A stretch of DNA of 64,000 nt from Bispira polyomma (GCA_965649765.1 OZ287756.1:36208001-36272000); one strand, 5' to 3'. Numbered from the stretch's first letter, positions 16,700 to 51,119 are shown. Program-made: numbers and translations. The notes: generated from the letters alone by a model not told the origin.

Positions 16700-17625
16700 A
16701 GCAACACTACAGTGACTGATACAGCTGACATCCTTCCTACAATATATATAACAACACTACACTGACTGATACAGCTGACATCATTCCTACAATATATATA
16801 TAACACTACAGTGACTGATACAGCTGACATCCTTCCTACAACACATATAACAACACTACACTGACTGATACAGCTGACATCCTTCCTACAATATATATAA
16901 CAACACTATAGTGACTGATACAGCTGACATCCTTCCTACAATACATATAACAACACTACACTGACTGATACAGCTGACATCATTCCTACAATATATATAT
17001 AACACTACAGTGACTGATACAGCTGACATCATTTCTACAATATATATAACACTACAGTGACTGATACAGCTGACATCCGTCCTACAACACATATAACAAC
17101 ACTACACTGACTGATACTGCTGACATCCTTCCTACAATACATATAACACTACAGTGACTGATACAGCTGACATCCTTCCTACAATATATATAACAACACT
17201 ATAGTGACTGATACAGCCGACGTCCTTCCTACAATACATATAACAACACTATAGTGACTGATACAGCTGACATCCTTCCTACAACACATATAACAACACT
17301 ACAGTGACTGATATAGCCTAAATGCTTCCTACAACACATATAACAACACTACAGTGACTGATACAGCTGACATCCTTCCTACAATATGTATAACAACACT
17401 ACAGTGACTGATACAGCCGACATCCTTCCTACAACACATATAACAACACTACAGTGACTGATACAGCTGACATCCTTCCTACAACACATATAACAACACT
17501 ACAGTGACTGATACAGCTGACATCCTTCCTACAATACATATAACAACACTACAGTGACTGATACAGCTGACATCATTCTTACAATATATATAACAACACT
17601 ACAGTGACTGATACTGCTGACATTC
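16700..17625. repeat. 50-bp minisatellite, ~18 copies
   Basis: Unit aacaacactacagtgactgatacagctgacatccttcctacaatacatat; taacaacact recurs at 17241, 17291, 17341 ... 17591. It explains the repetitive minus-strand ORFs (MSAVSVTVVL). Confidence 0.95.
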
Positions 17626-18644: not shown

Positions 18645-18878
18645 GGAGATATTCTGCCTCAAGCTCAGTTTATACTCCAGCTCAAATCTAAAAACAACAT
18701 ATCTCTAGCTAGTGTGTAGTTAAGTCAAATCTGATATTTGAATTCATCACTGAAAGCTCTATTAAAATGAATAGTCACAAGTGAAGGTTATCTCCATGTA
18801 CAAGATCTTACACATAGCCTTTAGTTGAGTTAGGTCTGAGTTCAAGCTTAAGGGTTTTTTTTTCGAAAATACAGAATA
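18645..18878 (+). mobile_element. MITE family A, copy 4
   Basis: atttgaattcatcactgaaagctctattaaaatgaatagtcacaagtgaaggtt ... ttgagttaggtctgagtt. Confidence 0.6.
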
Positions 18879-19114: not shown

Positions 19115-19353
19115 CTCATATTCTCCTAAATAATCTCAAGCTTAAAACTCAGACTCAACTCCAGTGAAGACTATCATTTATCCCTCATATACAACATAAC
19201 CTGCACTCGTAACCATTCGTATTAAATGAGCTTTCAACACTGAATTCAAATATGCAGTCAGATTTCACCTTATTTCACTCTAGCCAGTGATATGGGGTCC
19301 TGAGATTTGAGCTTAAGTCTGAGTTGAACTCGACTATTTTGGAGAATTTGGCC
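19115..19353 (-). mobile_element. MITE family A, copy 5
   Basis: aaccattcgtattaaatgagctttcaacactgaattcaaatatgcagtcagattt is the reverse complement of the family core. Confidence 0.6.
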
Positions 19354-20968: not shown

Positions 20969-21587
20969 TAGAGGTGGGACGGTACCAGTTTTTGTGGGGG
21001 CCGCGGTGGCATAGTGGTTAGCAAGCATTGCGCTTTACAATCACTGGTCTCTCACCTCTGGGCGGCGTGAGTTCGAATCCCACCGATGCCTATGTGGGAA
21101 AGGTGGTAGTTCCTTACTGTGGGCCGCTGGTTTCTCTGCAGAACCTTGACCGACTGTATGTAGTGTTTCCTCCGGCGTTTCCAACTACCCGTCCCAATAT
21201 AACCTACTAAAAGGTACTAGAGTGGACGTTAAATATCCAAATTCAAATTCAAGTACCAGTTTTTGTAAGTCGGTGCAAAACCGTTCAGATTCCGGGATAC
21301 AGAAAATTTATTGTTTCTAATATCTCCCCAATAGAATGCAGCCTACTACAGGAATTAGAGTTTCGCCGAACAAAATAAATGTTCCCACTCGATGAAATCG
21401 CTAAAAAAAAATTATAAATTTGCAAAAATGTAGTATGACAGGTTATATTGTCTGAATATATTGTATCTGTTTATATAATTTGAGGTTCTGCCGTTTTATG
21501 TACATTGTATCGAAACACTGGTAGCAATATTTACTTTCGGTCGGCAAGTCATTTTGTCTAGATATCGGCAGTACCGACCCACCCCTA
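20969..21587. mobile_element. Non-autonomous hAT-type MITE interrupted by a SINE
   Basis: TIRs tagaggtgggacggtac / gtaccgacccaccccta; 8-bp TSD ctttcaaa (20961-20968) / cttttaaa (21588-21595). Confidence 0.75.
20996..21252 (+). mobile_element. Full-length young tRNA-derived SINE
   Basis: 5' gggggccgcggtggcatagtggtta (A-box), gagttcgaatccc (B-box) and a (aaattc)n tail; perfect 14-bp TSD gtaccagtttttgt at 20982-20995 and 21253-21266. Confidence 0.9.
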
Positions 21588-22429: not shown

Positions 22430-22870
22430 GTGTGCTTTTCCATGCAGGCAACTTTCTGAGGCGATCAGGCGACGGCCGACGGCGATTCTACCAATTTCAT
22501 TGATTTATAACCAAGTGTTTCCATGTGAGCAACGCCGATAGGCGACAGGCAATGCCAGGCGATTTTTTCGGTACTAGGAGCGAAAAAAATCGCCTGGCAT
22601 TGCCCGTCGCCTTGTAAACATTGCCATTTTTTAAATAACTCAAAAATTACTAAAGGTATAAATTTAATGAAAATATGGTGAGAAAGCTTATTTTATCGGG
22701 TATATTGTGCTTTTTGTTGCATCAAAATCGGTTGAGAAATGGCTAAGATATTCAGGTATAAATACAGGTATCGATTTTTCTCAAATATTGTATAGAAACA
22801 TAAAAATTGAAAATCGCCTGTTATACGTCGGCTGGTCGCCTCAGAAAGTTGCCTGCATGGAAACGTTCAC
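22430..22870. mobile_element. PIF/Harbinger (Tourist-like) MITE
   Basis: ~45-bp TIRs (tttccatgcaggcaactttctgaggcga..cgacg / cgtcg..tcgcctcagaaagttgcctgcatggaaa); TAA on both flanks (22427-22429, 22871-22873); internal hairpin at 22540-22612. Confidence 0.8.
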
Positions 22871-23416: not shown

Positions 23417-23586
23417 CAGTCAAACCCCTCTAAGTAGAACTCTAAAAGTGGAATTACCTGTTAAGTAGAAGTTCTGTTAATGTCCTATTGCTATATTTCT
23501 AATTCAAATTTACCATTAAGTAGACAGTCTGTTAAGTGGAACCATTGTTATGGTCCTTTTATATTCGACTTAACATGGTGTCACTG
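23417..23586. mobile_element. pogo/Tigger-like MITE
   Basis: ta|cagtcaaacccctctaagtagaac ... cgacttaacatggtgtcactg|ta, with internal taagtag(a/g)a subrepeats. Confidence 0.5.
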
Positions 23587-26364: not shown

Positions 26365-26600
26365 TGGGCTTGTACTTGCAAAATATATCAAAGTCAACAA
26401 CTCACACTCAACTCAAATCTCTGCTTTCCGTATCTCTGTAGCCTTTAAACATACAGTAAATCTGACTTCGGATTTGAATTCAGTGGTAAAAGCTCTACTA
26501 GAATTGATGGTTTGAAGTGTAGGTTATTTACATTTACAAGTACTTTCACAATAGCTTTTTTAAATTTGTTAAGTATGAGTTAATGACAATATGGGCCCTG
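26365..26600 (+). mobile_element. MITE family A, copy 6
   Basis: ctgggcttgtac..aactcaaatc..gatttgaattcagtggtaaaagctctactagaattgatggtttgaagtgtaggtt..aatatgggccc. Confidence 0.6.
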
Positions 26601-28089
26601 GTTCAGTGCCCTTCACCCCTAACTCCCAGCAAACAGTAACCTATGTCCAGACCACTATGGATGGAGGATCCAGAGTTCACCCCTGTCAGCCTTCTATCCA
26701 GAATGATCTACACAAGTGCTCTTCCATCAGCCTCTGGCTCTGAACTATTAAAGTCTGGAAACTGAGAGATTCACTGAAATATCATGAGCCAGAACCGGGG
26801 AGGGGGGAGGGGGCATACCACCTTGCTACTCAGTAAAAACTGCCTATGGGGGGAAAAGCTTTCTTCTGTAAATAACAAAATACTCATCCAGACTCTACTA
26901 CCCTGTGCGAAAGTCTACCTTTTCAGCTGCTTAGCAGTCTAATAATGTTCAGGAGGTAATAAGATGTAAACTATAGAAGATGCTCTGTTGTGTATTAGGG
27001 TACGGATTTGTACAGGAATCCCCATGTATCTAGTACTATGGCATACTTCACAGTGAGGGGCCGATGTAACTGTAAATACACTGGGCCTGCCACACTCCAG
27101 CTCAGTAAATGAACTTGTAATAATATTTGTGCTCTATCTTTGTTACAGTCATACTATCACTAACTATCCATCTCAGCTGGTACAACATCAAATTCCTGGC
27201 AGCTTTGCTATTCTTTTTTCTATCTTTTATTTAGACATGAGCCCGTATAAATATAGCATATCCAAACAGGTCTCAAAAACGAGATATCTCCCCCTATTAC
27301 TAACCCTACTCACTAGACTGGGTGTATATAGGGCCTGCTTGCTTGTTCTCCAAAAACTTCTCTGATCTCAACCAGTAAAGAGACTGCACACCTAGACAGT
27401 TACCATGGCAACATCAAACCGAGCCACTCTCCAGTGATAATTAAGCTAATTCCCCTTTTGAAAACTGGTTTCCAATCTCATTATGGCTCCTCCTCTAGGT
27501 TCTCCCTCCTCAGATACCAGCCTAACAACATGACTAGAGAAGCAGCCCCTCACTCAGACCCTCCCCCTCAGCATAGACCATGACACGCCCTCATAACTCT
27601 ACCTTTGATCTCCTCCTCGAGCTCCAACTTCAAAGAATTCCTGCCTTAGAAAACCTCCTCTACCTAATATATCTAATTTACTGCAGTGAAAAGGAGAAAA
27701 GAAATTATCTTTAAAATGGGTCAATACCACCTGATACACTCCTGCAGTTTATTAATCACAGATACAAAAAGTTCAGGTCACAAAGTCTTTGTATAATCCA
27801 CACAATTCAGCACACACTTAACTGTTCTCAGCTGTGTTCAAAGCTATTGCATGGACTTACTGCTGCACATATATAACATGTTCTTGTTTATGTGTGATGT
27901 CAGTGTGCTTGTTGTGTGTGCAGTGTTGTTATTAGGATATAATCCTTTTTTTGGCATCAAACAATGAGGTTTGTGTAACCCCCATTGCCACCACTTGTAC
28001 ATTATTACTCCACACACACACACACAGGCACAAACAGTGTTTTTATCCAGGGGAATATGCATCAGAGAGAACACAAGAGTGAAAAAAAA

Positions 28090-28313
28090 CTCATCCTTAA
28101 ACTCGTACTCAACTCAAATAGAGGCTGTATGTAAATCTGGGTACATGCAAGCATGCAAGTAATCTATACCGGTGACGATTCATTCAATAGAGCTTTCAAC
28201 ACTGAATTCAAATATGAATTTTAGATATACTTACTATATCCAGAGTTTTAAAGAATACAGATTTAAGTTGAGTATAAGTTTGAGCTCAGTAAATGTTCCA
28301 GAATACCAGCCCA
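28090..28313 (-). mobile_element. MITE family A, copy 7
   Basis: aatagagctttcaacactgaattcaaatatg ... gagtataagtttgag ... gaataccagcccag. Confidence 0.6.
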
Positions 28314-31289: not shown

Positions 31290-31492
31290 ATAGTATGAAC
31301 TCATGTCAGTCTTCAGTCTATAAGAACCCAAACTCAGACTCGAGTAAAGGCTGTAATACTTGTGACCAGTCATTTCAATAGAGCGTTCAAGCTTGAATTC
31401 AAAGATACAGTCAAGTTTTTACTCTCTTTACCCTAGCCATATATAGTAAGACATTCGATTAAAGCTGGAGATTTTGAGTGAATCTGGCCACT
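31290..31492 (-). mobile_element. MITE family A, copy 8
   Basis: atacttgtgaccagtcatttcaatagagcgttcaagcttgaattcaaagatacagtcaag is the reverse complement of the family core. Confidence 0.55.
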
Positions 31493-34409
31493 GAATAAAT
31501 ATTTGAATATGTTATTTGTTGTATGTACATGTAACAATTCCTTTAGTTTCTAAAGTTTTACATTGCTCTACCAGATTGTTAAAATAAGGACTATAAGGTC
31601 CTACTGTATCATTTATAGATTAAACTACTTCAGTTAAAATTTAAGTTCTGGTTGATGTTTTAAAGGCAATGTATGTCCTGTTTTCCTCTAGAACAGAGAG
31701 ACCATAATGAACTTATGGAAAAACTAATTAAACATTTGGTGACTTAAACTTGAGCCTTTGAAAGGATTCTAATGGTGTTTTTATGTCAAAGAGTTGAGAC
31801 ATCTTCCAACGAAGTGAAGTGCATTCCAAGATTTCCTGACAGACCAATCGTTTAGCCCCCTTCCCGCCCTCATCCTCCTCTTCCCGATGTCATAACTAAT
31901 CTATCCGAGGCTACTGAGACTACTGACCATACATGTGTACTAGATGTGTCACACACGGGGACTCTCACAATGCTAACTAGCAACCAGATGGTCAAGGGGA
32001 TCATAGGGTATGCAGAGGTATGTCCTATAAAGACAGGATCTTAGTAAACTACAAGTCACATATGTAGAACCATCATATAAATAGCCTCTTACCAAAGCTA
32101 AAGTTTTATATAGAGTAATACACCAATTCTAATACTTAAGACAAAGTGATTCTTATAAACATGTTACAAAATACAAGTTATTAAAGTACAACCAAGATAC
32201 AAAAGACCTCACCAAGTGCAGAATATTTCTACACACTAATTTTAAGATTGAAACTTCGAAAGACATGGTTTTTTAATAAACTTGAAAAAAAGAGATTCGA
32301 GAATTGATAAAACACATACATACACATTTGTACTTTTAAAAACTTATATCATATTACTTTCATTGTTAATTGAAAAATTTGCAAAGAATATAATGCACAC
32401 AGGAGGTAATTGAGTAGATGACAGAGAATCAATCCCTTTCTTCTAAAATCTCGCAATAGTAATAAAAGGTTTTTATATCTCAATATTAAATTGCATTTGC
32501 ATGATAAAACACCCCATATCTTTAAATTTAAATTAATCTTCACAAATCGCAATACTGTGGTATAAAAAAAGTACACAAAAAACGTGTTTTTAAAAATGCA
32601 GAAAATCACTTAAAATTCTTTCATAATGCATTCATTAGTGGTGAAGTAATTGTTAAGATAAAAACTTTAGCGACTTTCACAAGTCACTCACTATCTCACT
32701 CAATGGGGTCTGTTTAAAAACGGGTGTGTTTTAAACCCTTCACAAGTCACTCGCTAGCTCCCTCAATGTGTTGTATTTGAAAAACAGATGTGTTTTAAAC
32801 CCACACTGCCACTAATGTCTGGGTGGGAAATGTCACCAACTCTTCACAGTTACTGTGCATCAGGGTTTTTTTACTAGTCTGTTAAATCACAGGGATGAAT
32901 ATAGAAAGCACACTTGAGGTTTTCAACAGCCCCACTTATCATGCAAGGAGTAGTATTACACAACAGTTCACCAGAGCTTGGCAAAAGTAACAATACAAAC
33001 ACAAATTGACACTATCGGATGACTTGATAGAAAACCTGTTTAAAACTCAATCATAAAGCCTGGAATTTACCTGTAGCTTTAAGACTCTTTATACATGAAA
33101 TTTGTTTGTATATGTATGTTGGAGATTCTGTTTATATGGTGTTAGACCAATCTCTTTTTGTCGCCAATAGACTGCTATTTTTTCAATTCCTGGATCGCTG
33201 ATGGAAACGAGTAAATAACATATTACACCAAATAATCTGTCCCTTTTCTCGATTCCACTGTCAAAATAACAGTAAAGAATCTTGCATAAAAGGGACAGAT
33301 TATTCGGTCAACTATGTGGACTTAACTTCCTAAACTGAATAAGGAGGATTCTAATTTTTGGTATAAATTGAAGCAAGAAATATAAACTCTGCAAAAAAAA
33401 TTTTGGCCAAGATTTATAAAGTAAATTTTTACGCCGAAAATTTGATTCTGAAACAAAATAAATGAATTAGATTTTTTCAGTTTTATGCACACATTTATTT
33501 CTTTTTCACACATTTAGGAACACGTTCAATGTGTCATTGTGATACAACACGAAAATTGCAGAAAAATAATGACTGTTGGAATATGGTGTACTACTATACT
33601 CTGGCCAGAGATATTGTGGAGAATTTATTATATGGCATCATTCACACTGAATGTTTCTGCCTTAAGTTGATGGCAGGATCTCTCACTACTTAATTATTAA
33701 AAGATTCCTTACAATGTGAATGATTATCCTAATAAATACCAAATGAAACCAATTGTTCAAATATTAATAAGAAACTCTATTAAACTAACAGACAAATTAA
33801 GTGCAAGTCTTACCTGTTTCCACAGACAGATGTATCCTTTTAAGGCAGTGACGTCTTATCTTACTACTTGGTTTTTCCTTTGTTTTATCACAGTAACTCC
33901 CAGTCCTAATTACACAGGACAAATACTTAACTACATCTTATCCAAATGAAAACCAATCTAATTATATGTTGTATTATATCACGTCATTGACATTAAGTTT
34001 AAATTTTCAGTAAGTGTTTATTACACTATTTAAATCATGTTGACAAAATATGGTGTTTGTCGAATACCTATGGTCACCATTTATTCCTTATATTTCTTTC
34101 AATGTTTTCCACAACTTATCACAAGTCCTTTGACCAACTTCCACATAAGAAGTTTAACTGCCTACTGACTTAACATGTTCACCGACTATATTATCAACTA
34201 ATCTCGTACCTGGAGTTATGCTGTTTAATGATCCACTTTCTCCTAGCTAAAGGTGTGTAGCACACAACACAATGGTCAAAAGAGTTGATCCACATGTTAT
34301 TAGAAAAGAAACTTCTCGCCACTTAAAGTATAAAACAGAACCAGTCACACACAGATCAATAAACAGTGAACGTTTTTCCCCAGGCCCATTGCTGACACCT
34401 AGCGGCAAG

Positions 34410-36253: not shown

Positions 36254-36420
36254 TCTCGTCGATGCCAATGTGGGAAAGGTGGTAGTTCCTTACTGTGGGC
36301 CGCTGGTTTCTCTGCAGAACCTTGACCAACTGTATGCAGTGTTTCCTACAGCGTTTCCAACTACCCGTCCCAATATAACATACTAAAAGGTGCTAGAGTG
36401 GACGTTAAATATCCAAATTC
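36254..36420 (+). mobile_element. 5'-truncated copy of the 20996 SINE
   Basis: Nearly identical to 21084-21250 (cgatgcc.atgtgggaaaggtgg ... gacgttaaatatccaaattc); TSD aagtcatttgtaactt at 36238-36253 and 36421-36436. Confidence 0.9.
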
Positions 36421-37075
36421 AAGTCATTTGTAACTTAAACTCAGTAATACTTACATCGATTTCCGTATACGTCAGAATGACATCGTCATGTTACCATTTA
36501 ATTAAACACAGCTTTCTACGATGACTTAAAATGTACGATCATGTTTGATATATAAATATACTGGCATGTTGTTTTTTCAATAAAGATAAAGTGGATCATT
36601 TATTGTGAGATTACTTTGATAATTACCACCCCCGATCTGCTGTTGAGAGTGTCCAGGTATCAATCTGTTCAGACCCTTGTTAGCCCCAATAAAAGTGCCC
36701 ATTAAACAAGCCACCCCCCTGGTTAGGTGTCAGACACCTTGTACCCCTGTCCAAGAGAGAGACCTTGACACCTTTAACCCCCAGTGACACCTGTCAGATC
36801 CTGGTCAGTGACGAGTGGACCAGAGATTGCAGGAGACAGACAATATTAGCCTGTACAAGGCTACTGGTCTGTGAAAAAGTTGTTTTTTTTTGTTTTTTTT
36901 TTGTTTTTTTTGTCCTCATTAACATTATAATTACATATCATACATTATTTTCATACATAGAAAACATCATTATAGTTTCTTTAAAAAAACCCTAAATTGA
37001 CCTAATACATAAATTGCATATGTTTACTTTTACACTAAATGACACATTTTGTCATTGAGGCAATTTACTTTTAGT

Positions 37076-40000
37076 TTACAAAGAGAAGATTGCCTCCCAC
37101 TTAGTCCAAGAAGTTTTGAAATTTTCTGCCTTATCCTGCAATTGATATATTAAAAATTCATTCAGACAAAGGATGTATGAACACATAAGAAGTGTTTATA
37201 ATCCCAAACTACAACCATCCACCCCAGTGTCAAGGCACTTTAGTCAGAAACAACACTCTGCTAAAAATATGGAGTTCAGTATTGTCCATTGGTTAGGTTT
37301 GGATAATAAGGCAAATAGTACAGACCGACGAAGACGTCAGGAACTGTACTATATTTGGTCCTTACCAACCCTCTACCCCAACTGGGATTAATGTATTTGT
37401 GTGATGAGGCCCTCTTATCTGGCACCCTTACCCTAGTGCCCCCTTATCCCTTTATATTAAAAATTCATCTTGGTAAAGCGCTTTTAATTTCAGTTTTAAA
37501 GCCTTCAAGGAGAGTCTTTCATTTTGATTGTTGGAATCGAAAATATATTTTTTTACCATCATAATTAAAGCATTCACAGGGACATTATTTTGGTCCTTCA
37601 GCTGGTACCCGAAGATTATTGTGAAGTCAGTAAAATTGACTTGAACTTTTAGGATTTTTTTTATATGTTCTGCGATAATTCTCCAAAATTTTTGTATTTC
37701 AGAACACTCGACAAACATGTGCGTCAAGGTTTCGTTTTCCATATTGCATCTGGCACAGTGTGCATTATCGACAACATTTAATTTTTTTAGATAGTTTCTC
37801 GTAGCTGTCAGTCTATAAATTATTTTAAGTTGAAACCAAGTCAGGCTATTATTAGTAATTGTCTTAAAGCAAATTCTAAATATTGCCTTCCAAGTGATAT
37901 CGTCAATGTTTGTTTTTAAATCATCATTCCATTTCAGTTTCATGTTATGGTTGTTTTTATCATTTCTATCTAAGCACCGATAAAAGTCTTGTGCGCCTTT
38001 GATAGATTTATACAAAATTTTCTAGTGACCAGGGAGAAAGGGTCTTTTAACTATATGACCTGTGTTTATCCTTTTTCTTTTGATATATTCTTTGACATTG
38101 AGTTTCATTTGATAATATTGTAAATAATTCTTGTTATCGAGACTGTAAATGTCTTTAAGTTCATCTAATGTCAAGAAAAATCCTGATTGATTTAAAACAT
38201 CAGAAATTATCGATATTCCACTTTTAAACCATTCTGGTAATATAAGGGTCACACTTGATATTTCACTATTAAACCATAAAGGGCTTGCCAGTGCCTCCTA
38301 GTCTGTAAGTGCTTGCTGGTTAATCAAAAATTCCCAGGCCTCAAAAACTTCTATCCAAAAATTGTTGGAAATTTTGTCTTTCACATACTTTAAATATGCA
38401 TTCCCAAAGATGTTAAAGTTTTCAATCTTTGCATGCATACTGGCTTTGAACAAGTCAATCCACGGGGAATTTGATCGAAGGAGTCTACGAAACCATGTGA
38501 CCTTAAGGGATTTTATATATTTTGTCAAATTTATCATTTTTAGGCCTCCAATATTGTTGTCCAGTAAAAGTACACTTCTGTTTAACTTGTCTGGTTTGTT
38601 ATTCCAAATAAATTTAAACAAGATAGAGTTTAACTGGTCCAATACAGATTCCTTTGGCATTGGTAGACTTAACAATATATGGTTAAGTTTAGCCAGTAGA
38701 AAGGTCTTTACAACTGTTATTTTACCCATCGGAGTCAGATTCCTTTTATTCCAGTAATTAATACTACCTTTGATTTCAAGAATTTTTGAGTGGTAATTTA
38801 ATTCTGGCATTTTATCCAAATCGACAGAGAAGATCAACCTCAAAAGGTCAAAACCAGTTGCTCCCCAATGGAATGAACCCTTAGACAGTTTATCATTAGA
38901 ATGTCTTTTCTTACCAATCCATATTAACTTTGTTTTATCAGTGTTGATCTTTAACCCGGAGATTGTTCCAAAAATTTCGAGTGTGTTTAAAGCTGCTTCA
39001 AAAGAAATATCAGTCCCATCCAAAAATAAGGTAGTATCATCAGCAAATTGTGTCAATTTAAATTCAGTATTATCTACAGATAAACCTTTAATTTTTAGAT
39101 CATTGTTTATTAAGAGACTTAAGACCTGGCCTGCTATTGTAAACAAAAAATAAGGTGAAATTGGGTCACCTTGTCTACAACCTCGTTGGATTTCAATGAA
39201 GTCTGACATAAAACCACTTTGCAAGATTGTTGCTTTGATATTATTATTAAAAAGGTGGATCCATTTTAAAAATTCTGGACTGAATCCTAAAAAGCTTAGT
39301 GTTTTGTACAAAAACTGCCATGAGATGGAATCAAAGGCCTTTTCAAAATCAATCAACATAAGTAGCCCTGATATGTCATTGCTTTCTGCATAATGCATTG
39401 GATCATACACTAAACGTGTGCATTCTCCTATATCTTCCTGGAACAAAGCCATTCTGACTATTATCTATCAAAAAATTCAAGACTGGTTTAATTCTATTTG
39501 CAATAGCGGCTGAGGCTAATTTATACACTACGGACAGCATTGATAGAGGACGCCAGTTTTTTAGATACTCTCTAGGTTTGCCTTTTTTTGGAAGGCAAGT
39601 AATTACACATTGTCTTAATGATAACGATAGAACACCTTTTTCAAAACTGAAGTTTAATGCACGTAATAACCAGTTCCCAAGTGACCTCCAAAAAACTTTA
39701 AAAAATTCTGAAGGAAATCCATCAATACCTGATGTTTTGTTGTTTTTCATATGTTTCAAAGCATTGCTTAATTCGTTGTAAGTTAGTGGGACTTCCAAGG
39801 ATTTGGACTGTTCTACAGTAAGCTTTTTTGCCCTATGAGCACCAAGTAATGTGTCAAGATTGATTTTTTCAAGTTGGTCATCTCTGGACTGAAATAGCCT
39901 ACTATAAAATGATTTTAATTCATTGAGGACCTCTTTCTGATGTGTCACCAGAACACCATTGGCTTTTATAACTCTTTTTACTGTCTTTTCGATATAGTTA

Positions 40001-41182
40001 TGATGTTCGAGAGCACAAAAGAATTTGGTAGGTCTTTCACCTTTGACTAGCCATTGAACCCGGGATCTTATCTTTTGACCTTTTATGGCCTTATTTCTTA
40101 ATATCTCAAGTTCTTGTTTTTTATCATTTATCAAATCCAAATTTTCAGGCATTTGACCTTCCAACGGTTCAATTTCTCTTACAAGCAATTTTTCAGCTGT
40201 GACGTTTTTACGTTTTGTCAAACTTGAATATTTAATGGTTTCTCCTCTTATTCTAAGCAGGAGTGTCTCCAGAAAAAGATCATCAGATATTGTTAATTGT
40301 TTTTCACTAACTGCGATGTCATAAAATTTTTCAACATTATACACTGGAATGGCATTTTTTAGTTCTTCTTCAAGAATATATTTGTTAATCAAGCACAAAT
40401 AGTCTTTATCCTTTAACAAAATCACAGTTTAGCTTCCACAAACCCCTTCCTCTTTGAAATTTATTGATTAAAATATGTAGTTGTATCATTGAATGATCGG
40501 ACCTGTATCCAGGTTTAATATCTACTGCACTTATTAAATCAGACAAAGATAACGAGACAATGATATAATCCAATCTGGCCTGTTTGATAGGATTTTTCCT
40601 GCGCCAAGTATAACACTTTATTTCTGGATGAAAATAGCGGAAAATATCAACCAAATTGTATTTTGTTATAGTATTTAAAACTAGATTTCTATTTTTTGGA
40701 TTGTTCAAATTGATGTAGTTGTAACTGTCCAAATCTGGGTCCAGGATCAAATTAAAATCCCCACACCAAATAACATAGTCTTGTTCAGATTTGTCTATGT
40801 AGTTTTCGACTGATGTAAAGAATGGCTCATTTTCTGTGTTGGGGGCATATATATTAATTAATCGGATCTTAATATCACTTATTTTCATATCCAGTATAAT
40901 CATGTTGGATTCCTCGTCCTTAATGACATTTAAAATTTCGTATTCAAAATTATTTCGAAGTAATATTGCAACTCCTCGCTCATTACTACGATCACCATTT
41001 AAAATTATATCTCCATCCCAACAATTCAAAATATTTAGTTCGTCCGATTTAACTAAATGTGTATCTTGTAAACACATAATATTCACCATTGTATCTTTTA
41101 AATAGTTTAGGACGTCATATCTCTTTTCCTTGTTAGCTAGTCCCTGGCAATTTAGGGATATTAACTTTAGTCTTTCTCCCAT
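37076..41182 (-). pseudogene. L1/Tx1 ORF2 (APE endonuclease - reverse transcriptase - CCHC), disrupted
   Basis: APE motifs ISLNCQGL, CLQDTH, NIYAPN, GDFN, RLDY, SDH. RT motifs NWRPLS, DFEKAFDS, GCRQGDPISP, QFADD. Zinc knuckle CARC..ETLTHMFVEC. Lesions: frameshifts near 40420 and 39430, in-frame stops at 38298 and 38022, and an insertion at 37162-37452. The true C-terminus DEFLIYQLQDKAENFKTSWTKWEAIFSL* ends at 37076. Start could be 41182 or 41200. Confidence 0.95.
37162..37452 (+). mobile_element. Penelope-like element 3' fragment (C-terminal half of GIY-YIG endonuclease)
   Basis: Translates RQRMYEH..PVSRHF..HS..MEFSI..RRRQELYYIWSLPTLYP/(+1 frameshift)TGINVFV*, the typical PLE GIY-YIG tail. 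Flanked by a 16-bp direct repeat tatattaaaaattcat at 37146-37161 and 37453-37468. Confidence 0.85.
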
Positions 41183-41759
41183 TCTATAATTATTGTACAT
41201 ATTAACCGATAACTATAAGTGGGGAGCCTCTACACGAATTGCTTCTAGAATAACCAAATGTTTCAAATGCCTCAGTTGTAAATGTGACAACACGTTATTT
41301 GCAATATCAGGATTATTTATGAGCTCACATATAATTCTTTCATACAGATATAAAATTAATTTCAACATATCTTGGCTTTTGGCACAATCCTTGTAATAAT
41401 ATACACATTTTTGAAGTGTTTTGAATGATACTTTTGCAGGTGACTACAACCCTATGGAACTCAACATATTCTATGTAGTAACAGTGTAACAAGCTTAATG
41501 TAATAGAGGACATTTGCACAAATTGATTAAAAATACATACACTTAAACATACAAAAATAAAAAACATAAATAGAGGAATAGTACTGACAGGAGTATATGC
41601 GAGTTACTGTGTAAAATATAGCCAAGCTAGGTTTCCTATCGGGCATTTTCAAATTAAAATGTCATACTAATCCTTTTAGAATTAAATTTATTGTCAACAT
41701 CAGTCCAACTTAATTGTATCTGAAGAAGCGTTAGTTAAATTAAATCACTAAATTATGGT

Positions 41760-44700
41760 ACAATATGTACTCTGAACCATTGTATTATTTATAAGCACTG
41801 TAAAACTATGTAGATACAATACTACCAGTCAGATTAAAGGCAATATAGATACAATATAGATACAGTTTGGTACAATACAACAAGTTAGGTAACAAGACAA
41901 TATATACTCTAAACCATTGTATTATGTATAGGCACTGTAAACTGCATAGATACAATGCCTTCCAATTGGGTTACAGGCAATATATACTTTGAAGCATTGT
42001 ATTATTTATAAGCACTGTAAACTACATATATACAATACCACCAATAGGGTTACAAGGCAAAATATACTTTTAACGTTTTCAGGTTACAAGGCAATATATA
42101 CTCTGAACCCTATTATTATTTAAAAACACCATCTACTACAAATAGTTTAGTTAGAATACCACCAGTTATATTACAAGGCAATTTTTTTCTCGGACCTATA
42201 GTATTGTTTGTGAACACTGTAAAAACGTAAAGATACAATGTCAGGAGTTGGGTTAGAAGGCAACATACATTCCAAACATTGTATTATTTATCAGAACTAT
42301 AAATGGCATAGATACGTTCTACCAATTAGGTTACAAGGAATGTATATTCCAAACCATTGTATTTTTCAAGCACTGTAATCTACATAGATACCATACTACT
42401 ATTATGGATACATGGCAGTATACACTTAGTCATTGTATTATTTGGAAGCACTGTAAACCACATAGACACAGTAACACCACTTATGTTACAAGGTAGTATA
42501 TACTCTAGGTTACAAGGTAATATATACGCCAAAACATTGTATTATTTATAGACACTGTAAACTACATAGACACAGTACCACTAACTAGGTTACAAGGCAG
42601 TATATACTTTAGGTTTCAAGATAATATGTACGCCGAAATATTGTATTATTTATAAACACTGTGAACTACGTAGACACAATACCACCAACTTGATTACAAG
42701 GAAGTACATACACCGAACTATTGTATTATTTATAAACACTGTAAACTACATACATATACTACCCCCAACTAGGTTACAGGTTATTACCGAACAATACCAC
42801 CAACTAGGTTACAGGTTATTACTGAACAATACCATCAACTAGGTTACAGGTTATTGCCAAACTATTGTATTATTCATAAACACTGCAAACTACATACATA
42901 CACAATACCTCCAACCAGGTTACAGGGAAGTATATACTCTGAACCATTATTATATTTATAAACACTGTAAACCACATCAGGTAGTTAGCTACAATACCAC
43001 CAACCAGGTTACAAGGCAGTACATATACGCCGAACCATTATATTATTTTTAAACACTGTAATCTACATAGATACAATACCACCAACTAGGTTACAAGGCA
43101 GTATATACGTCGAACTATTATATTATTTATAAACACTGTAAACTGCGTAGCTACAAATACCACCAACTAGGTTACAGGGCAGTATATATACGCCGAGCCA
43201 TTTTTTATTTATAAACACTGTAAACTACCTAGATACAATACCACCAACTAGGTTACAAGGCAGTATATACGCCGAACTATTGTATTATTTATAAACACTG
43301 TAAACTGCATAGATACAATACCACCAACTAGGTTACAAGGCAGTAAATACGCCAAGCCATTATACTATTTATAAACACTGTAAACTACCTAGATACAATA
43401 CCACCAACTAGGTTACAAGGCAGTATATATACGCCGAACTATTATATTATTTATAAACACTGTAAACTGCATAGATACAATACCACCAACTAGGTTACAA
43501 GGCAGTAAATACGCCGAGCCATTATATTATTTATAAACACTGTAAACTACATAGATACAATACCACAAAGTAGGTTACAAGGCAGTATATACGCCGAACT
43601 ATTATATTATTTATAAACACTGTAAACTGCATAGATACAATACCACCAACTAGGTTACAAGGCAGTAAATACGCCGAGCCATTATATTATTTATAAACAC
43701 TGTAAACTACCTAGATACAATACCACCAACTAGGTTACAAGGCAGTATATATACGCCGAACTATTATATTATTTATAAACACTGTAAACTGCATAGATAC
43801 AATACCACCAACTAGGTTACAAGGCAGTAAATACGCCGAGCCATTATATTATTTATAAACACTGTAAACTACATAGATACAATACCAAAAACTAGGTTAC
43901 AAGGCAGTATATACGCCGAACTATTATATTATTTGTAACACTGTAACCTACATGAGATAGTTATGTTTCCAGTCAATATATATTCTACACCATTATAATA
44001 TTTTTAGCATTGTGAGCTACCTGGATAAAAGTACAACCAATTAGGTTACAAGGCATGTATACTCTAAACCATTGTGTTATTTAGAAGCACTTTAGACTAC
44101 ATTGATACAATAAGGTTGATATAATCAGGTTACAATACCATATATACTCTAACCCACTGTGTTATTTATCAGCAATGTTATACCTAGATACAAGGCAGTA
44201 GGTTACAAGGCAATATATACTCCTAACTACTGCAGTATTTATAAGCACTGTTAATTACAGATAGATACTACATGTATATCATCAGTCAAGTTTCAAGGCA
44301 AGATGTACTTTAAACCGTTCTATTATTTATAAACACTGTAAACTACATAGATACAATACAACCAGTTTGGTTATGAGGAAGTATATCCTCTAAAAGATTA
44401 TATTATTTATAAACTACATAGATATAATACTACCAGTTAGGTTACTAGGAAATATATACTCTAAACCATTGTATTTTTTATAAGCACTGTAATCCACATA
44501 GATACAGTACCACCGATTAGGTTAAAAGGAATTGTATACTCTGAACCATTGTAATTAGGTTACAGGGAATTATATACTCTATACCATTGTACTAAAAAAT
44601 ACATCAGATACAGCAAATAGTTTAGATACAATACTACTTAGTAGGTTGCAAAGCAATAAAAATACTCCAAACTATTTTATTATTTATAAACAATTTTACT
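41760..44700. repeat. ~80-bp tandem satellite array inside the retrotransposon inter-ORF region
   Basis: Unit gccgaactattatattatttataaacactgtaaactgcatagatacaataccaccaactaggttacaaggcagtatatac. ggttacaagg recurs at 43251, 43331, 43411, 43493, 43573, 43653, 43733, 43815 and 43895. Homogeneous centre, diverged edges. Confidence 0.95.
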
Positions 44701-45254
44701 CTGTGTAATATTTATACATTACACATTAAACTACATTGACCATTTGTCAGATCAGCATTATGCACTATTTAGTTATTGTTCTTGCAATATATAGATTACA
44801 TACACATGTCTGATAAAGACCGTTGCAATCTAGACATAATAGTTTGTACATAAACTCAAATTGTCAACTTTTACTACTAAATAAACTGTATGTAAACCGT
44901 TTTCAAGTACTATTTATATTTAGATCGTTAAATTGTATTGCATAAACAATCAATTATATTTCAATTTTAAATTGCTGGTCGTTATACCTAAGATGAAACA
45001 TACAGGAAACTTCCTTTATATAATGCTACATTTCATTGACATGCAGACACTAATAGCATCTATATACACTTTAATTGTCTATGTTACTTTCCAGGCCTAT
45101 TGGTAATTAAATCCTCTATTTTAATCTAGTGTTCATTTCTGCTACCGATATATATATTACGTAAGCATGCTTGATAGAGATTGTTGTTATACAGACAACA
45201 GTATTACGTACATACGTGTACATATATAAATTATAACAAGATTGTATATGAGTC

Positions 45255-45830
45255 CCCAGTTATGTTACCAATTTCTGTAACAGTAATTATGACCACTAAA
45301 TATGTCTCGTTTTAATATTAATACTGTATTTTTTTAATTTTTTTTTTAAAACTACCATGTCTAATTACTGCAGACATCATTACTATATACATTAACTTTA
45401 ACATTTAAATTGTACTGCACAGTTATGTTACCAATTTCTGTATCAGTAGTTATGACCATACAATAGGTTTCGTTTTAGTTTTAATACTCTATTCTACAGC
45501 AAAATATTTTTTATACTACCATGTCTAATTAATGCAGACATCATTACTATGTACATAAACTTCAACATTTAGATTGTACTGCATAATTACGTTACTTGTA
45601 GCAGTGATTACGAGATCATTACTTTGTACATAAACTTCAACATTTAGATTGTCCTGTATAATTACGTTACCAATTGCTGTAACAATAATCATGACCACTA
45701 TATATGTCTCGTTTTGATTTTTATACTCTATAACAGAAAAACTTTTTTTTTTATACTTCCATTGTCTACTTAATGCAGACCATCTTAACTATGTCCATAA
45801 ACTTCAACATTTAAATCGTACTGCATAGAC
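45255..45830. repeat. ~160-180-bp imperfect tandem repeat, ~3.5 copies, in the inter-ORF region
   Basis: agttatgttaccaatttctgt at 45258 and 45421, with variants at ~45585 and ~45661; recurring tgcagacatcattactat..aacttcaacattta.attgtactgca. Confidence 0.85.
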
Positions 45831-45875
45831 ACAGTATCAAGGTTATATATATACATGATTACAACATATGTAATA

Positions 45876-46038
45876 CAGTTGAACCCCATCATGTTGATTC
45901 TCATAACACCTCCACTCAAGCAGGATTTCCAATTAACAGGGTAGATTTAAAAGGAAAAGGCCCTCATGGGACCTCAAATCTGTCTCCACATAACAGGAAA
46001 AAGGACTCAACAGAGCTCTACCTAAAGGGGCCTGACTG
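45876..46038. mobile_element. pogo/Tigger-like MITE within the retrotransposon spacer
   Basis: ta|cagttgaacccc ... ggggcctgactg|ta. Confidence 0.5.
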
Positions 46039-46473
46039 TACAACCACCATTGCTATATACTACATAATAAAATAATTTTAAATTGTACTACATAAACACA
46101 GTTCCAGAGTTGATTTGAGTTACCAGTTCAGCTGCCAGTTGAATCTGGCTTTTATTATGTCAATTTGTTTTAATGCTCAAATTAATGCGTTATACATTTA
46201 ACTAAATCTAATAAGTTGAGAACATTTCTAGAAATACTGCAAATAAGTTTGTTATGTTCATAACACTTGTTTACTATAAATTTTGGTGCGAGATAGATAT
46301 CTTCAATATAATCGATGCACAAACTTAAAATCATCACTTTTTCATTTAGAAAGACGTACAATTGTACAACAAATAGTAGTTATTTTGAAACTTCATTTAT
46401 TTTTCTTACTGTATTTATATAGGCAGTTCGTAGATTATCATATGATCATATGAAATGATAAAGTTGAAAGTCC

Positions 46474-47679
46474 CTACTTTAATGTCTGTCTCACTCTCAT
46501 TAACGTTTTGCCTGCGAAATTTTTGCCCTTGCACTTCTCTGGGTTAAATACACTATTACTGTGGAGTGAAACTCTACTTCCCCAGTATAAGTCTGTTGGG
46601 CTGGCCTCTACAAGCTGTGTATTACCTGTTGCTAGAAGAAATGCCTGTAAGTGTTCACTCTGACTAAACTTAGCATGCATAGCTTTGAACATGTATTCTT
46701 GCGCTACCTCAGTCCACTTTCCAGTGTTGAATCCCTCGACCTGCTTTCCAATATCTTTGGCTTCTTCTGGGTTTTTTACTTGTAGTATCCTGTTGGCTGC
46801 CACCAGATCCTTAAAGAACATTGCTTTGTTGTACATAAAACATTGTTCAGAGCTTGTAAACAAATGTTCCCCCTCCCTAAACTCTGCTGGATGATGGTTG
46901 CTAAGGGTCGAGTATTTACTGTAGTAAGCAGTTACTCCATTTTTTGTAGGACTGAATATCTTTTCAGGCTGGAGTTCATCATATGGTATTGAAGTGATAT
47001 TACTATCCTTGTATTCTTTTCCACCTAAGATGAAGCTATCAATACACAGTTTGGGTTTCATGTTTGGGCATACTTCCAATGACTTGAAGAAGGTTGGCAG
47101 TATTAATTTTCTACGTTTAATCACTTCTGCAGGGTAATCATCAAAGACACGGATGTTTCTGGATCTCAGTGCAACTTTCTGTTTCATGACATTTATCTTG
47201 TCCTTGAAGTAGTGGAATTTAACCAGGATCTGTCTGGGCTGGTCTCTCACTCTTGGTCCAATGAAATGGACTCTTTCGATATTTCTGGGAACCAGTTCAA
47301 TATCTACCTCACCCAAAAGTTTGATTGTATGGTCTTGTAGATTCACCTCTGGACCTATTCTACACCCTACACATTTCACATTGTTTCTCCTGCTATATGT
47401 CTCGTGTTGGATGATTTTTTCCTTCAATTCCATATTTTCTTTTTTAACTGATGATAGCTCTTGTCTAACTACCTGCAGATTCTGCTCTATTGTTGCTGTT
47501 TTTATTTCTAATTCAGTCACTTTTTTAATCTCATCCATAACATATTGTACTGAATGTTCAATAGTATCCAACTTCTCTAGTTTAGAATTTATTGGATCTA
47601 GTTTATCATCTAATATTTTGGTAATAGACATCACAATATCACTTTTTTCAACTGATCCTCTTGTTCCTTTTGCTGCCAT
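46474..47679 (-). CDS. Retrotransposon ORF1p (coiled coil-RRM-CTD, L1 Transposase_22-like) fused to a C-terminal NADAR (YbiA/DUF1768) domain, 401 aa
   Basis: aa ~20-95 heptad coiled coil. L1 ORF1 motifs YSRRNNV, IERVHFIG, PRQILVKF, VFDDYP..RRKL. aa ~249-401 NADAR motifs LSNHHP, SSEQCFMYNKA, PEEAKDIG, W..M..AKFSQ..L..LLATG, LVEASPTDLYWG, GKNFAGKTLMRVR. Uninterrupted, with a good start context (acgATGg). Confidence 0.93.
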   Translation of the reverse strand: MAAKGTRGSVEKSDIVMSITKILDDKLDPINSKLEKLDTIEHSVQYVMDEIKKVTELEIKTATIEQNLQVVRQELSSVKKENMELKEKIIQHETYSRRNNVKCVGCRIGPEVNLQDHTIKLLGEVDIELVPRNIERVHFIGPRVRDQPRQILVKFHYFKDKINVMKQKVALRSRNIRVFDDYPAEVIKRRKLILPTFFKSLEVCPNMKPKLCIDSFILGGKEYKDSNITSIPYDELQPEKIFSPTKNGVTAYYSKYSTLSNHHPAEFREGEHLFTSSEQCFMYNKAMFFKDLVAANRILQVKNPEEAKDIGKQVEGFNTGKWTEVAQEYMFKAMHAKFSQSEHLQAFLLATGNTQLVEASPTDLYWGSRVSLHSNSVFNPEKCKGKNFAGKTLMRVRQTLK

Positions 47680-47759
47680 CGTTATTAACTTTTACTCAAA
47701 GTTTTTTTTGAAAACTTGCTAATGCTCCACAGCAGGTGATATTTACAACTGAGCAATAA

Positions 47760-48365
47760 TCAGTCACTGGGTATTCTATCCCGAAAATAATTTGGTTCTC
47801 ATTTAATTATTTTAAACAAATTCAGTTGTCATACCTCTGTGGGTCTGGGTAATGTTCAATCCTTTTATATCAACTCAGTATTGGAGTTTTTATTGCATTT
47901 TACTGATAATGTTATGTCAAATAAGTTTCTTCTTTTCCGTAGTTAACAAACAATTTTCACACCTCTTGGACACTGGGTGATGTTCAATCACTTTATATCT
48001 GTCACTGTTCAGTCACTGGGTATTCTATCCAAACAATTAATTTGTTCTCATTTAAATATTTTAAAACAAATTTAGTTATCACACCCCTTTGGGCACTGGG
48101 TATTTTTTAATCCCTTTGTATTAACTTAATACTGAATTTTTAATTAGATATTACTGATAATGTTATTTTAAAAAAGTTTTCTTCTTTCCCATAATCAACA
48201 AAACAGTTTTCACACCTCTTGGACACTGGGTGATGTTCAATCACTTTATATCAATTCAGTACTATACTAGTATAGGTGCTATGCTTAGTCAACGTTTATA
48301 ATACATTTAGCTGATACTGGTATATCAACAAGGTTTTCTTCTGTTCCATAATCAACAAACAGTCC
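47760..48365 (-). repeat. Tandem ~250-bp monomers in the retrotransposon 5' UTR (candidate internal promoter)
   Basis: cagtcactgggtattctatcc at 47761 and 48010; ttttcacacctcttggacactgggtgatgttcaatcactttatatc at ~47954 and ~48207; partial further subunit to ~48365. Confidence 0.85.
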
Positions 48366-51119
48366 CTATTCACAGATTAATTATATTATTAATCACTTAG
48401 TAATACTATAGCAGGGCTATTCCCCTCTCAGTCAGAACAGCCAACACACATATATACTGTCAATGGGCGATATTATGGCATACTGATGATTTCACTCAGT
48501 TTTGCTGGAATTTCCTCCTCCATAAATGGAACATCTGGGGGGTAATTCTTGCAGTGATTATTATGTAGGTTTGTATTTGATGATAACAGGGGTAATATCA
48601 TTAATTTTGTGGTTTCTATTTACCTCAATTTTGCATGCGTCTTTTCCGTCTGCGAAAAAGTTAATAATAATATAAAGAGGTAATGTGTAACCAGCTGTGT
48701 ACACAGGAAATCTTTAATTAATGTATCCAATGTAATCTAACTTTTACAGTGCTTAATTTCTGTACTAGCAGATTCTAAGGCGCATGAGACAGAAAAATCT
48801 TATCGTAATTTTCAACTATTGGATGCACAGGGGTCATGGCTGTAGAGGCGTCTTAAATGGAACGGGAAGTTAAGATAGAAAAGCTTTGTTGGTGATCATA
48901 TAATCCTCTTGTAGTCATTATATTGTCCTAGTTTTAATAGAATGGTATTCGGGTGCTTTTGATAGTCAGTTACTTTTTTCTATGGCTATTTTAAAGATAG
49001 TACAAAAGTTAGTATATTAGATCAAGTTAAAATAAAATAAGTTAGAAGAGAAAATGCTTTCTGCTGTAGTGTACTATAATTAACTAAACATTGGGAAATG
49101 ACTTCTATTGTAATCCAGATACTATGGTGACCTCAACTATAGAAATACATTTAAAACTACATACTCATAGATTTGACAATTGAAATGCTTATTGTTTAGA
49201 AAATCATGGAATACGGTATAAGTGGTATACAGTCTAATTATCTGAGACTGTGGGTTAGTAGGTTAGACTCACCCACTTAGAAACACATAGGGTTCCTATG
49301 ACTGGACCTGGGTTTGATTCTAGCCTGAGGATGACAGATACAGACAAATAAATAAACATAATGTGTGAGGTAACAACCTAAACTGGTCGTCCTCTACCAT
49401 TGGGTTCTACCCCCCCCCCCCCCCCCCCCCCAGTGACAGGCTAAAGAATCCTGGGGAGGTTGACAACATAAGCCTGTGTCTTCAGACCTCTGCAGGTTTA
49501 CTGGGCCTTGTTCAAGATTGGCACAAGTACATCATTAGCAACCAAATCTCGAATAAATGCTGTTAATAGCCTGAAGTTAGTTATATAATCTAACTATCAT
49601 CTGTAGTTGGTTGCTAGCCAATTAAAGGGGTTGTTTTCATCACATTAAAACTGGTCGGAGCTTCTAATATTTTCAAATCATAGTTTTGTATATTAAGTAA
49701 TAATGTGTTGCTGTCAGTGGAAAACATAAGCCTCAACAAAGGTTACGTCCATCACCAAACAGGAAATGGGTGTTTATACATTGCAAAATTTAAAAATAAC
49801 TCAAAACTGTATATATGCCCCTCTGCTAATATTGCTAATATGTTCAACATCTGATTCATATTTTTGCTTATATTGCTAATATATCTAACGATAACCAAGA
49901 TAAACAATAGAATCAAGATACCAATAGTAAAAAGTTCAATCATTTTTTTGGTGCCCATTTGTCATTGTGCAGAAACTCTATACAATTCCCCTCACGTCAT
50001 CGACTGTGATCTAATAGGCAGATCCTTGTGGCTTGTGGTAATAAGACACATGTCTAGTAAAGTTTCACCACCAGTCAAGTTCTAATTACACTTGTAAATG
50101 TAATATAAAGACCTGTACAGACGGGTGACTCCAGAGAGAGACATGGGAGCTTCTCCAGGCAGAGCTCTCTAGTAATTGGCTTGTCACAAACTGATCCCCT
50201 GCTAGTGGCATTGTTCTCTGAACAGCCTTTGTCCACACAATGGGTTTTAGACTAGATCAGACCAAATCTCTCCACGGTTTAATTGAGTATATCATCGAGT
50301 CCAGATTCCCATCTATTTTTGGCCTGGTATCATTACAGTTTTTGTATTTATCTTCTACTCCTCTTAGCTGTGAAGGTTGTCCAAACTTTAAGTTTCTACC
50401 ATCATAACAAACATTTCACTGAATTACTTATCTTGATACATACGTCAATAACAAAATAGAATCTCAGTATAAATGTACCTTAGAATCCACTTTAAAGGAG
50501 ATTAAGTACTATAAAAGTTTGATTAGACTAGGGTTTAAACCTCCACCATGGCGTCACAAATCTGAAAGATCTGTGTTTTAGCTACATAGTACTAGACCTG
50601 TGAAAGTTACAGTATATCAAAAAGTAAATAATATTTTTTTTGTCAAAACACCAATATCCTAGTAGAATCTACATGAGTAGTTGGCGAGGTAGAATCCTAT
50701 AATATAAATATTCAACAGGTTTTGGTAACCGTTTCAATTATTTGTTGTTAGACATGTTTTTAGATACGTTCCATACGATTCCCTTACGTATTTCATTCCG
50801 TTTAAATTTTATTACCCACATTTTGAATACTGGTAGGTTGCATTCGCTTCATTATATCCATTCAAGACACGTCATATATTTTGTCGAATGCACCAATCGT
50901 TTTAGCGGAGATTGTCGAAAATGGCTCCAAACGTTCATTTTGAATTGATAGATTTTCTTCTCTTCACTTCTCTTATGTTTTACTTACACAAGTATACGTT
51001 TATATACATTCAATGAGCAAAATTCCTATTAGATTCGTTTTTATTGCGTTTTACCTTCAGTTTGTGAAGTTTTGGGCGTAATCAAAAGGTAAGCCCAGTG
51101 TGACGATGGCTTAAGTACT

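Follow-up and report, generated by a model that had tools for sequence, protein, structure and literature searches.

The locus examined here raises the question of whether two distant open reading frames (ORFs), together with the long repeat-bearing spacer between them, arrived in the genome as one transposable element. It lies in a 64,000-nt stretch of Bispira polyomma DNA (GCA_965649765.1 OZ287756.1:36208001-36272000), hereafter the window, in which all positions are counted from the first letter. On the minus strand, an ORF1 ending in a NADAR domain is followed, after a spacer of 5.3 kb, by the ORF2 of a long interspersed element (LINE). A sequence-only reading of this stretch had proposed that ORF1, spacer and ORF2 moved as a single 11.8-kb unit, that NADAR was real cargo of it, and that the element was retrotransposition-competent. 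Our analysis indicates that the locus is a full-length L1-superfamily LINE, probably of the Tx1 clade, that was inserted once, likely with most of its spacer, decayed, and was itself entered by a nested insert. Labelled members of Atlas clusters, very few in number, point to an annelid or mollusc as host.

The outer limits of the insertion are set by a 15-bp target-site duplication (TSD), both copies of which, GTCTGTGAAAAAGTT and GTCTGCGAAAAAGTT, were found where the sequence-only reading had placed them (Table 1). They are alike at 14 of 15 positions, the sole mismatch being the TG/CG difference that had been taken for a CpG/TpG change, and the likeness extends no further on either side. Searching the window with the 15-mer at up to one mismatch returned exactly these two matches, with 2.6e-4 chance matches expected in a 3-kb zone and 2.4e-3 in 27 kb; at up to two mismatches there were three matches, a number reached by none of 100 shuffles. 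No other TSD partner of at least 11 nt was found between the start of ORF2 and ORF1, where it would have marked a 5′-truncated, ORF2-only insertion. The TSD bounding ORF1 and ORF2 together is real, and the adjoining poly(A) tail, the distance to ORF1 and the GG at which the sense strand starts were all as first described. The site had also been read correctly as TT/AAC, but its proposed likeness to the L1 preference is weak, since TT/AACT shares four of six bases with TT/AAAA and is a single site. Its flanks share no repeat with other parts of the window, and no Rfam family was found at the insertion site.

The two copies enclose 11,766 nt, of which at most 11,459 nt (11.46 kb) were inserted together, because 307 bp derive from a later nested insert in ORF2. 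The proposed unit of 11.8 kb is thus somewhat too long; that the element exceeds known L1s in length is borne out. A TSD dates only the outer ends of an insertion, and since the nested insert shows that DNA was added internally at a later time, the TSD alone is no proof that the spacer moved with the ORFs.

Judging from its predicted structure (pLDDT 92), ORF1 is of the coiled coil-RRM-CTD type of L1 ORF1p with NADAR fused in frame. The model matched the human L1 ORF1p trimers 2YKO, 2YKP and 2YKQ (E ~3e-7), the P. nicotianae NADAR 8BAU (Foldseek E 3e-12) and E. coli YbiA (2B3W), and Pfam placed PF08719 (NADAR) at residues 254-401 with E 3e-39 and 135 bits, against a cut-off of 35.1. Residues E278, K285, K308, E358 and D363 align with E43, K50, K75, E125 and D130 of the P. 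nicotianae NADAR; the chain numbering in the 8BAU alignment is two higher than the published residue numbers. Residues E43, K50, E125 and D130 have been described as important in NADARs (PMC11543638; sources are cited by PMC identifier and, apart from PMC11125620, stand here for excerpts of each work), and their counterparts E278, K285, E358 and D363 are kept in 161, 153, 159 and 144 of 161 aligned relatives, which were picked by whole-protein similarity, a choice that favours conservation. A word search with ORF1 yielded 49 relatives, 13 of them at 43-51% identity over most of the length; several relatives belong to clusters of 5-11 members on contigs of 0.25-2 Mb. In a profile search, 141 of the best 150 representatives at 50% identity combined the RRM/CTD region with NADAR. 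Given the in-frame fusion, the retained catalytic residues and the fusion common to these 141 representatives, NADAR is genuine cargo of the LINE, as had been proposed. A zinc knuckle was found in none of 194 ORF1 relatives. At 11 of 59 positions, including two in the C-terminal half of NADAR, the window ORF1 itself lacks the residue conserved in the family. A separate group of proteins (P0290, P0291, P0294, P0296, P0303, P0326, P0332 and P0337) has NADAR domains in tandem sets of 3-7 and lacks an ORF1 region, and three of those tested fall near the ORF1-fused NADARs in a weak tree.

ORF2 carries the Pfam domains PF03372, PF00078 and PF13966, with the APE endonuclease N-terminal to the reverse transcriptase (RT). 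On the RT side, human L1 ORF2p was the best solved match, with E 2e-36, and R2 followed with E 5e-12. With an APE-RT ORF2, an upstream coiled coil-RRM-CTD ORF1 on the same strand, and a poly(A) tail with TSD, the element is an L1-superfamily LINE by the structural criteria tested. The window copy is dead and non-autonomous, because ORF2 contains two frameshifts (near 40415 and 39430), two TAG stops (38298-38300 and 38022-38024) and the nested insert; the competence claimed for the element therefore holds for its parent only. The nested insert interrupts the ORF2 C-terminus, where 307 bp were added after the LINE insertion, and codes for a 75-aa piece like a GIY-YIG C-terminus (an Atlas lead of 0.91, with PF01541 carried by 26% of members); Pfam gave no match on this frame. 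It may be the 3′ end of a Penelope-like element, a kind with a C-terminal GIY-YIG endonuclease. Because it splits off the end of ORF2, much of the apparent 3′ untranslated region (3′UTR) is not 3′UTR. Each A-run of the tail is flanked by C, reminiscent of the AAC with which the target begins, and no AATAAA lies ahead of the tail; primer slippage as reverse transcription began may account for the C-flanked runs. No further remnants of ORF1 or ORF2 were found in the window.

The spacer holds no ORF of more than 87 codons, and its sense strand has 127 ATGs and five AATAAA motifs. Its 80-bp tandem array is T-rich on the sense strand, whereas the ORFs are A-rich; it fades gradually toward 44.7 kb, ends abruptly at 41761, and is followed just before ORF2 by ~0.56 kb of unique sequence with 12 ATGs. 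The outer units are mostly 55-85% alike (15-45% different), and those of the core (43097-43902) are 86-100% alike, with 160/322-bp higher-order repeats and 5 differences in 322 bp. This core alone is young, and it may have grown after insertion by up to ~0.8 kb. The 80-bp unit has no other copy in the window and no detectable relationship to the 164-bp units. The third component, a decayed insert resembling a miniature inverted-repeat transposable element (MITE), has inverted ends alike at 14 of 26 positions and two relatives in the window, at 5411-5570 (+) and 23417-23586 (+), with local scores of 89 and 69, where the 99th percentile is 35. The three diverged copies make up a small family with CAGT...ACTG ends. 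Only two TA-flanked elements of this kind, 163 and 170 bp long and mutually related, occur in the 64 kb; a TA duplication and terminal inverted repeats are traits of Tc1/mariner-type MITEs, a possible identity for the insert. The copy at 5411 has no clear right end.

Most of this spacer probably moved with the element. The decay of the window copy was put at roughly 1-2% from the two ORF2 stops and simulation, and 7 of 196 near-invariant ORF2 residues are changed, compared with a median of 1.7% (range 0-4.7%) in intact relatives. The spacer repeats and the MITE-like insert are 15-40% diverged (the 164-bp units by ~16%; the MITE-like ends differ at 12 of 26 positions). Because this divergence exceeds the decay of the copy, we infer that the outer array units, the 164-bp units and the MITE-like insert are older than the insertion. 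No repeat that bounds the array, whether direct or inverted, is longer than chance would give (9 and 10 nt at most; shuffled direct repeats are typically 10-11). The idea of a single unit thus likely holds for most of the spacer, and the youngest array units, which are 98% identical, may be later additions.

Relatives elsewhere provide a second line of evidence. P0010, an ORF1-NADAR 44% identical to ours, and P0051, an ORF2, are single-member clusters on contigs of equal size, 8,925 bp. P0051 is the second-best of 995 full-length ORF2 matches and falls in the 22-row clade of the window ORF2 (SH-aLRT 99) in a quick tree of 55 rows; the pair is the only size match between the 49 ORF1 matches and the 240 listed ORF2 matches. 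With shifted sizes, the chance of the 8,925 match was 0.3-5% for the 13 close relatives. If the 8,925-bp contig is one element, ~3.9 kb of it would be non-coding, which fits a multi-kb spacer and does not measure it.

Several observations weigh against an intrinsic spacer. Over all 49 ORF1 matches, some size match is expected 53% of the time; the 8,925-bp link is a size match only, and its ~3.9 kb is an upper bound that gives no spacer length. None of the 120 listed partial ORF2 matches agreed in size with an ORF1 contig, and a second size match (35,655; P0025 and the L009 contig) was unconfirmed in the part of L009 examined. Among 25 LINE loci from an RT scan of bacterial and archaeal genome records, none carried NADAR and no second copy of the spacer was seen; three with a NADAR-less ORF1 show gaps of ~190, 377 and 519 nt, these three being distant (37-41% on the best RT segment). 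In six upstream regions of fetched LINE loci there was no clear likeness to the window spacer. One nested insert did enter the window copy, the array has its abrupt end, and no TSD is to be expected from a rolling-circle passenger. The age of the MITE-like insert is judged from the imperfect likeness of its ends and from two other copies, to which it is 64-70% identical, and its full-length comparison with one relative was no better than the best shuffle; the decay estimate of ~1-2% is likewise rough. As to the scanned loci themselves, in L007, L008, L009, L010 and L023 (filed as bacterial metagenome-assembled genome) several intact LINE ORF2s recur every 6-10 kb in the same orientation; these records are probably host DNA in which LINEs form target-specific or tandem arrays.

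Given full weight, such points would lead to a LINE inserted with a spacer of at most ~2.3 kb, the 3-kb 80-bp array, and perhaps more, having come later in a rolling-circle (Helitron/Helentron-like) or similar passenger. Nested insertion is proven once in this very copy, the array breaks off abruptly 0.56 kb short of ORF2 and differs from the A-rich ORFs in its T-rich sense strand, and if a passenger carrying an already old array had moved recently, the array would look no younger. Furthermore, the 8,925-bp contig leaves ~2.7 kb for a spacer if its UTRs are like those of the window, and repeat-carrying non-autonomous elements are common in bivalves. We nevertheless regard a late passenger as unlikely, as the array has no TSD or terminal inverted repeat beyond chance, no other copy of its unit in the window and a gradual fade at its far side, and the rest of the spacer, which also contains old repeats, would still measure 2.3 kb, double the longest vertebrate L1 spacer in the survey.

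The remaining alternatives concern the union of the two ORFs. A one-off chimera, formed by a template switch from an ORF2-bearing RNA to a separate half-L1-like ORF1-NADAR RNA with a long 3′ extension, would explain why, among the 17 best ORF1-NADAR relatives, seven are on contigs that have no room for ORF2 (1.4-2.8 kb), and is compatible with the AATAAA downstream of the ORF1 stop. Short contigs could equally result from early polyadenylation or from assembly breaks at repeats, however, and with P0010 and P0051 both on 8,925-bp contigs, ORF1 and ORF2 about equally far (~50%) from their nearest relatives, and no internal tail or junction seen, we consider a chimera very improbable. That the 15-mer match arose by chance, ORF1-NADAR being a neighbouring gene or separate element, could be argued from the 5.3 kb between the ORFs and the one TSD mismatch; against a chance of ~3e-4, the L1 ORF1p-like fold of the N-terminal half of ORF1, and two intronless ORFs on the same strand in the right order, this explanation is already close to refuted.

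Under the preferred reading of a single insertion with most of the spacer, transcription from the 5′UTR, the presumed internal promoter, with a 251-bp dimer (~84% identical) at 47760-48252, would have produced an RNA of ~10.7-11.5 kb already holding most of the spacer. ORF1p trimers would coat this RNA and hold the NADAR glycohydrolase on it, and ORF2p would nick the target and copy from the tail by target-primed reverse transcription, leaving the 15-bp duplication; ORF1p coating, and nicking and copying by ORF2p, are standard L1 biology. After insertion the copy decayed and a small second element entered ORF2. The spacer would be a long-standing and mostly neutral component of the parent lineage, which may have gathered tandem repeats and a MITE because ORF2 was not reached by scanning from ORF1. 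Early polyadenylation may yield an additional ORF1-only RNA: the first AATAAA after the ORF1 stop could end one of ~2.27 kb, which we note as a lead only.

Table 1. Features of the LINE insertion and of a dispersed repeat in the 64-kb window
Feature	Position	Strand	Remarks
TSD 3′ copy, GTCTGTGAAAAAGTT	36867-36881	-	adjoins poly(A) tail
Poly(A) tail	36882-36911	-	C-interrupted, three A-runs of 8-10
True 3′UTR	36912-37075	-	~163 nt, no AATAAA
Displaced last ORF2 codons and stop	37076-37145	-	ORF2 profile positions 1243-1269, E 0.056
Nested-insert duplication	37146-37161 / 37453-37468		perfect 16 bp
Nested insert	37162-37452	+	291 bp, antisense to LINE
ORF2 main part	37453-41200	-	APE endonuclease, RT, zf-RVT
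Inter-ORF spacer	41201-46473	-	5,273 nt
80-bp tandem array	41761-44739	-	~3.0 kb
164-bp repeat, ~3.4 copies	45257-45831	-	~80-84% identical
Decayed MITE-like insert	45876-46038	-	163 bp, TA both sides, CAGT...ACTG ends
First AATAAA after ORF1 stop	46396-46401	-	
ORF1	46474-47679	-	401 aa, open; coiled coil aa 7-96, RRM, CTD, C-terminal NADAR
YbiA-family NADAR domain	46477-46944	-	PF08719
5′UTR	47680-48647	-	968 nt, starts GG
TSD 5′ copy, GTCTGCGAAAAAGTT	48648-48662	-	968 nt upstream of ORF1 ATG (47679)
~200-bp dispersed repeat copies	2826-3040, 5899-6036, 15506-15578, 18679-18862, 19135-19326, 26398-26581, 28079-28278, 31356-31414		

How ORF2 would be expressed from such an RNA is constrained by the 127 AUGs in the spacer, which exclude simple re-initiation or scanning. 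L1-type ORF2p favours the RNA that encoded it, and since it was the long RNA that was copied, internal initiation is the simplest route. Initiation within the unique 0.56 kb before ORF2 is our leading candidate, although it falls somewhat short of being probable; internal ribosome entry sites (IRESs) have been predicted in 32 of 36 long vertebrate L1 spacers (PMC5381506). Against it, no IRES, promoter or Rfam family was detected in the element, the Rfam scan giving one chance match. Expression from an internal promoter is distinctly less likely, and splicing, or some other route, less likely again. Splicing from a donor-like GTAAGA at 46409 to a branch-point/acceptor-like site at 41720 would remove 4.7 kb, after which the spacer would have a typical length of 0.58 kb; this pair is a lead only, as 5 kb of sequence should contain motifs of this sort by chance, and splicing is disfavoured because the shorter, spliced RNA should have displaced the unspliced one. 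The 1.4-2.8-kb contigs of the seven ORF1-NADAR relatives span the size of the 2.27-kb RNA, and are also explained by assembly breaks.

The role of NADAR can be approached through its stand-alone relatives. NADARs strip guanine ADP-ribose from DNA and RNA (PMC11543638, PMC11833690), and all those tested act on guanine ADP-ribose in RNA and not on ADP-ribosylated RNA phosphate ends (PMC11833690). The shellfish protein CARP-1 makes the guanine-ADP-ribose linkage (PMC11543638), and NADAR in animal RNA viruses has been proposed as a counter-defence against host transferases (PMC9503650). As ORF1p coats the element RNA, fusion would place the eraser on its substrate. We lean slightly towards an ORF1p-held NADAR that removes guanine ADP-ribose, placed by host ADP-ribosyltransferases, from element RNA or nascent cDNA. 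Two points count against this proposal. The ORF1 NADAR departs from family-conserved residues at positions 369 and 383, so that the domain of the window copy itself may be impaired, and we know of no host transferase acting on LINE RNA. With the same LINE structure, NADAR may instead clear small metabolites of ADP-ribose or riboflavin type, process RNA ends or add RNA binding, an appreciable though lesser possibility. YbiA acts on riboflavin intermediates and the physiological targets of stand-alone NADARs are unknown (PMC11543638), NADAR activity in vitro does not predict rescue in vivo (PMC11125620), and RNA processing has been suggested for a retroelement NADAR (PMC12477816). However, the inactivity of tested NADARs on ADP-ribosylated phosphate ends argues against RNA-end processing, the near-invariant catalytic residues argue against pure binding, and repeated capture by RNA viruses and retroelements fits a conflict.

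Half-L1 (HAL1) elements consist of ORF1 and lack ORF2, and this identity was ruled out here, as ORF2 lies inside the same TSD. Membership of the Tx1 clade is probable; it is based on the published link between NADAR and Tx1 and on known features of the clade, the ORF2 tree having held unnamed relatives only. Many, but not all, Tx1 members prefer particular target sequences (PMC4494074). The closest published parallel is found in Crassostrea gigas, several Tx1 families of which share with the window an L1/Tx1-type ORF2 and a YbiA-family NADAR in ORF1; NADAR also occurs in an Ectocarpus Gypsy Pol, and its role was described as unclear (PMC12477816). In the first 400 nt of the oyster L1-Tx1 consensus S.glomerata_21 (PMC10294476, file 25), a CCHC knuckle followed by NADAR motifs can be seen by eye. 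This consensus, of about 4.9-5.3 kb, appears to have a zinc-knuckle ORF1 and a short spacer, whereas the ORF1 of the window is of coiled coil-RRM-CTD type without a knuckle and is followed by a 5.3-kb spacer; these excerpts hint that NADAR sits on two ORF1 types and that the published kind has short spacers. L1-Tx1 elements are widespread in molluscs according to the same bivalve LINE library, but its consensuses measure 1,786-9,087 bp (L1 mean 5,851), full-length copies not having been systematically sought (PMC10294476). Three short window motifs had no match in the library text, of which ~400 nt per record were covered. The excerpts of a work on gastropod LINEs contain no mention of NADAR (PMC11203168).

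Vertebrate L1s share with the window element an APE-RT ORF2, tail and TSD, a Type II (coiled coil-RRM-CTD) ORF1 (PMC4120745) and an AT-rich, sometimes repeat-bearing spacer for which an IRES has been proposed (PMC5381506). In contrast, their spacers reach at most 1,032 bp, a fifth of that in the window, and elements of mammals, the longest group, at most 9,646 bp; NADAR is unmentioned in the excerpts of that survey (PMC5381506). Other LINE ORF1s with esterase or PHD domains (PMC4120745) and the Ectocarpus Gypsy Pol-NADAR (PMC12477816) resemble ours in having captured an accessory domain, and differ in the kind of domain and in retroelement class and position, respectively. The P. nicotianae NADAR (8BAU), E. 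coli YbiA (2B3W), DarT1 antitoxins and viral NADARs share the fold and the catalytic E/K/E/D set; unlike these, the window NADAR, a putative hydrolase, is fused to an RNA-coating trimeric ORF1p, and the element encodes no transferase to go with it. In the literature covered, we found no description of a multi-kb L1/Tx1 spacer; subscription journals and Repbase entries lie outside that coverage, and the latter may record one. The cargo, NADAR on a Tx1 ORF1, was already known; the novelty lies in the spacer, which is unusual and probably, not certainly, intrinsic.

The window contains further repeats. A dispersed repeat of ~200 bp with ACTCAA...TTGAGT inverted ends is present in at least eight copies, ~70-80% alike (Table 1). 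A young 163-bp direct repeat (21084-21246 and 36260-36422) is 96% identical between copies 15 kb apart, the latter lying ~450 bp from the 3′ TSD of the LINE. A 50-bp tandem array at 16702-17623 (18.6 copies, 91% matches) is unrelated to the LINE. The inverted pair 6758-6832 and 7576-7686 has 15-16-bp subterminal-like repeats and possibly forms the ends of a 0.9-kb DNA transposon, and palindromes occur at 22540-22612 (73 bp) and 33218-33317 (100 bp). A match near 52700 was rejected as a simple A-rich repeat.

Repeat annotators would treat the parts of such an element separately, as ‘gene’, satellite and truncated LINE. Whether ORF2 of dicistronic L1 RNA is translated via an IRES or by re-initiation is an open question (PMC5381506), and the element, in which the 5.3 kb separating the two ORFs contain 127 AUGs and exclude scanning, offers a clean test substrate. 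The ORF1-NADAR family is large, with at least 141 clusters at 50% identity and almost invariant catalytic residues, and we found one published paragraph devoted to it. It is tempting, if doubtful at present, to see here a giant (>10 kb) dicistronic L1/Tx1 lineage with a heritable, multi-kb, repeat-filled spacer, an ORF2 expressed without scanning, and an active ADP-ribosyl-guanine eraser on ORF1p that was captured more than once, by coiled coil-RRM-CTD and zinc-knuckle types. The reversal of guanine ADP-ribosylation on RNA by NADARs, taken with the conserved ORF1-NADAR fusion, predicts an assayable host ADP-ribosylation defence against LINEs. If true, a LINE would here be using an enzyme as counter-defence, which would suggest that invertebrate hosts have an unrecognised defence based on ADP-ribosylation of transposon RNA or cDNA.

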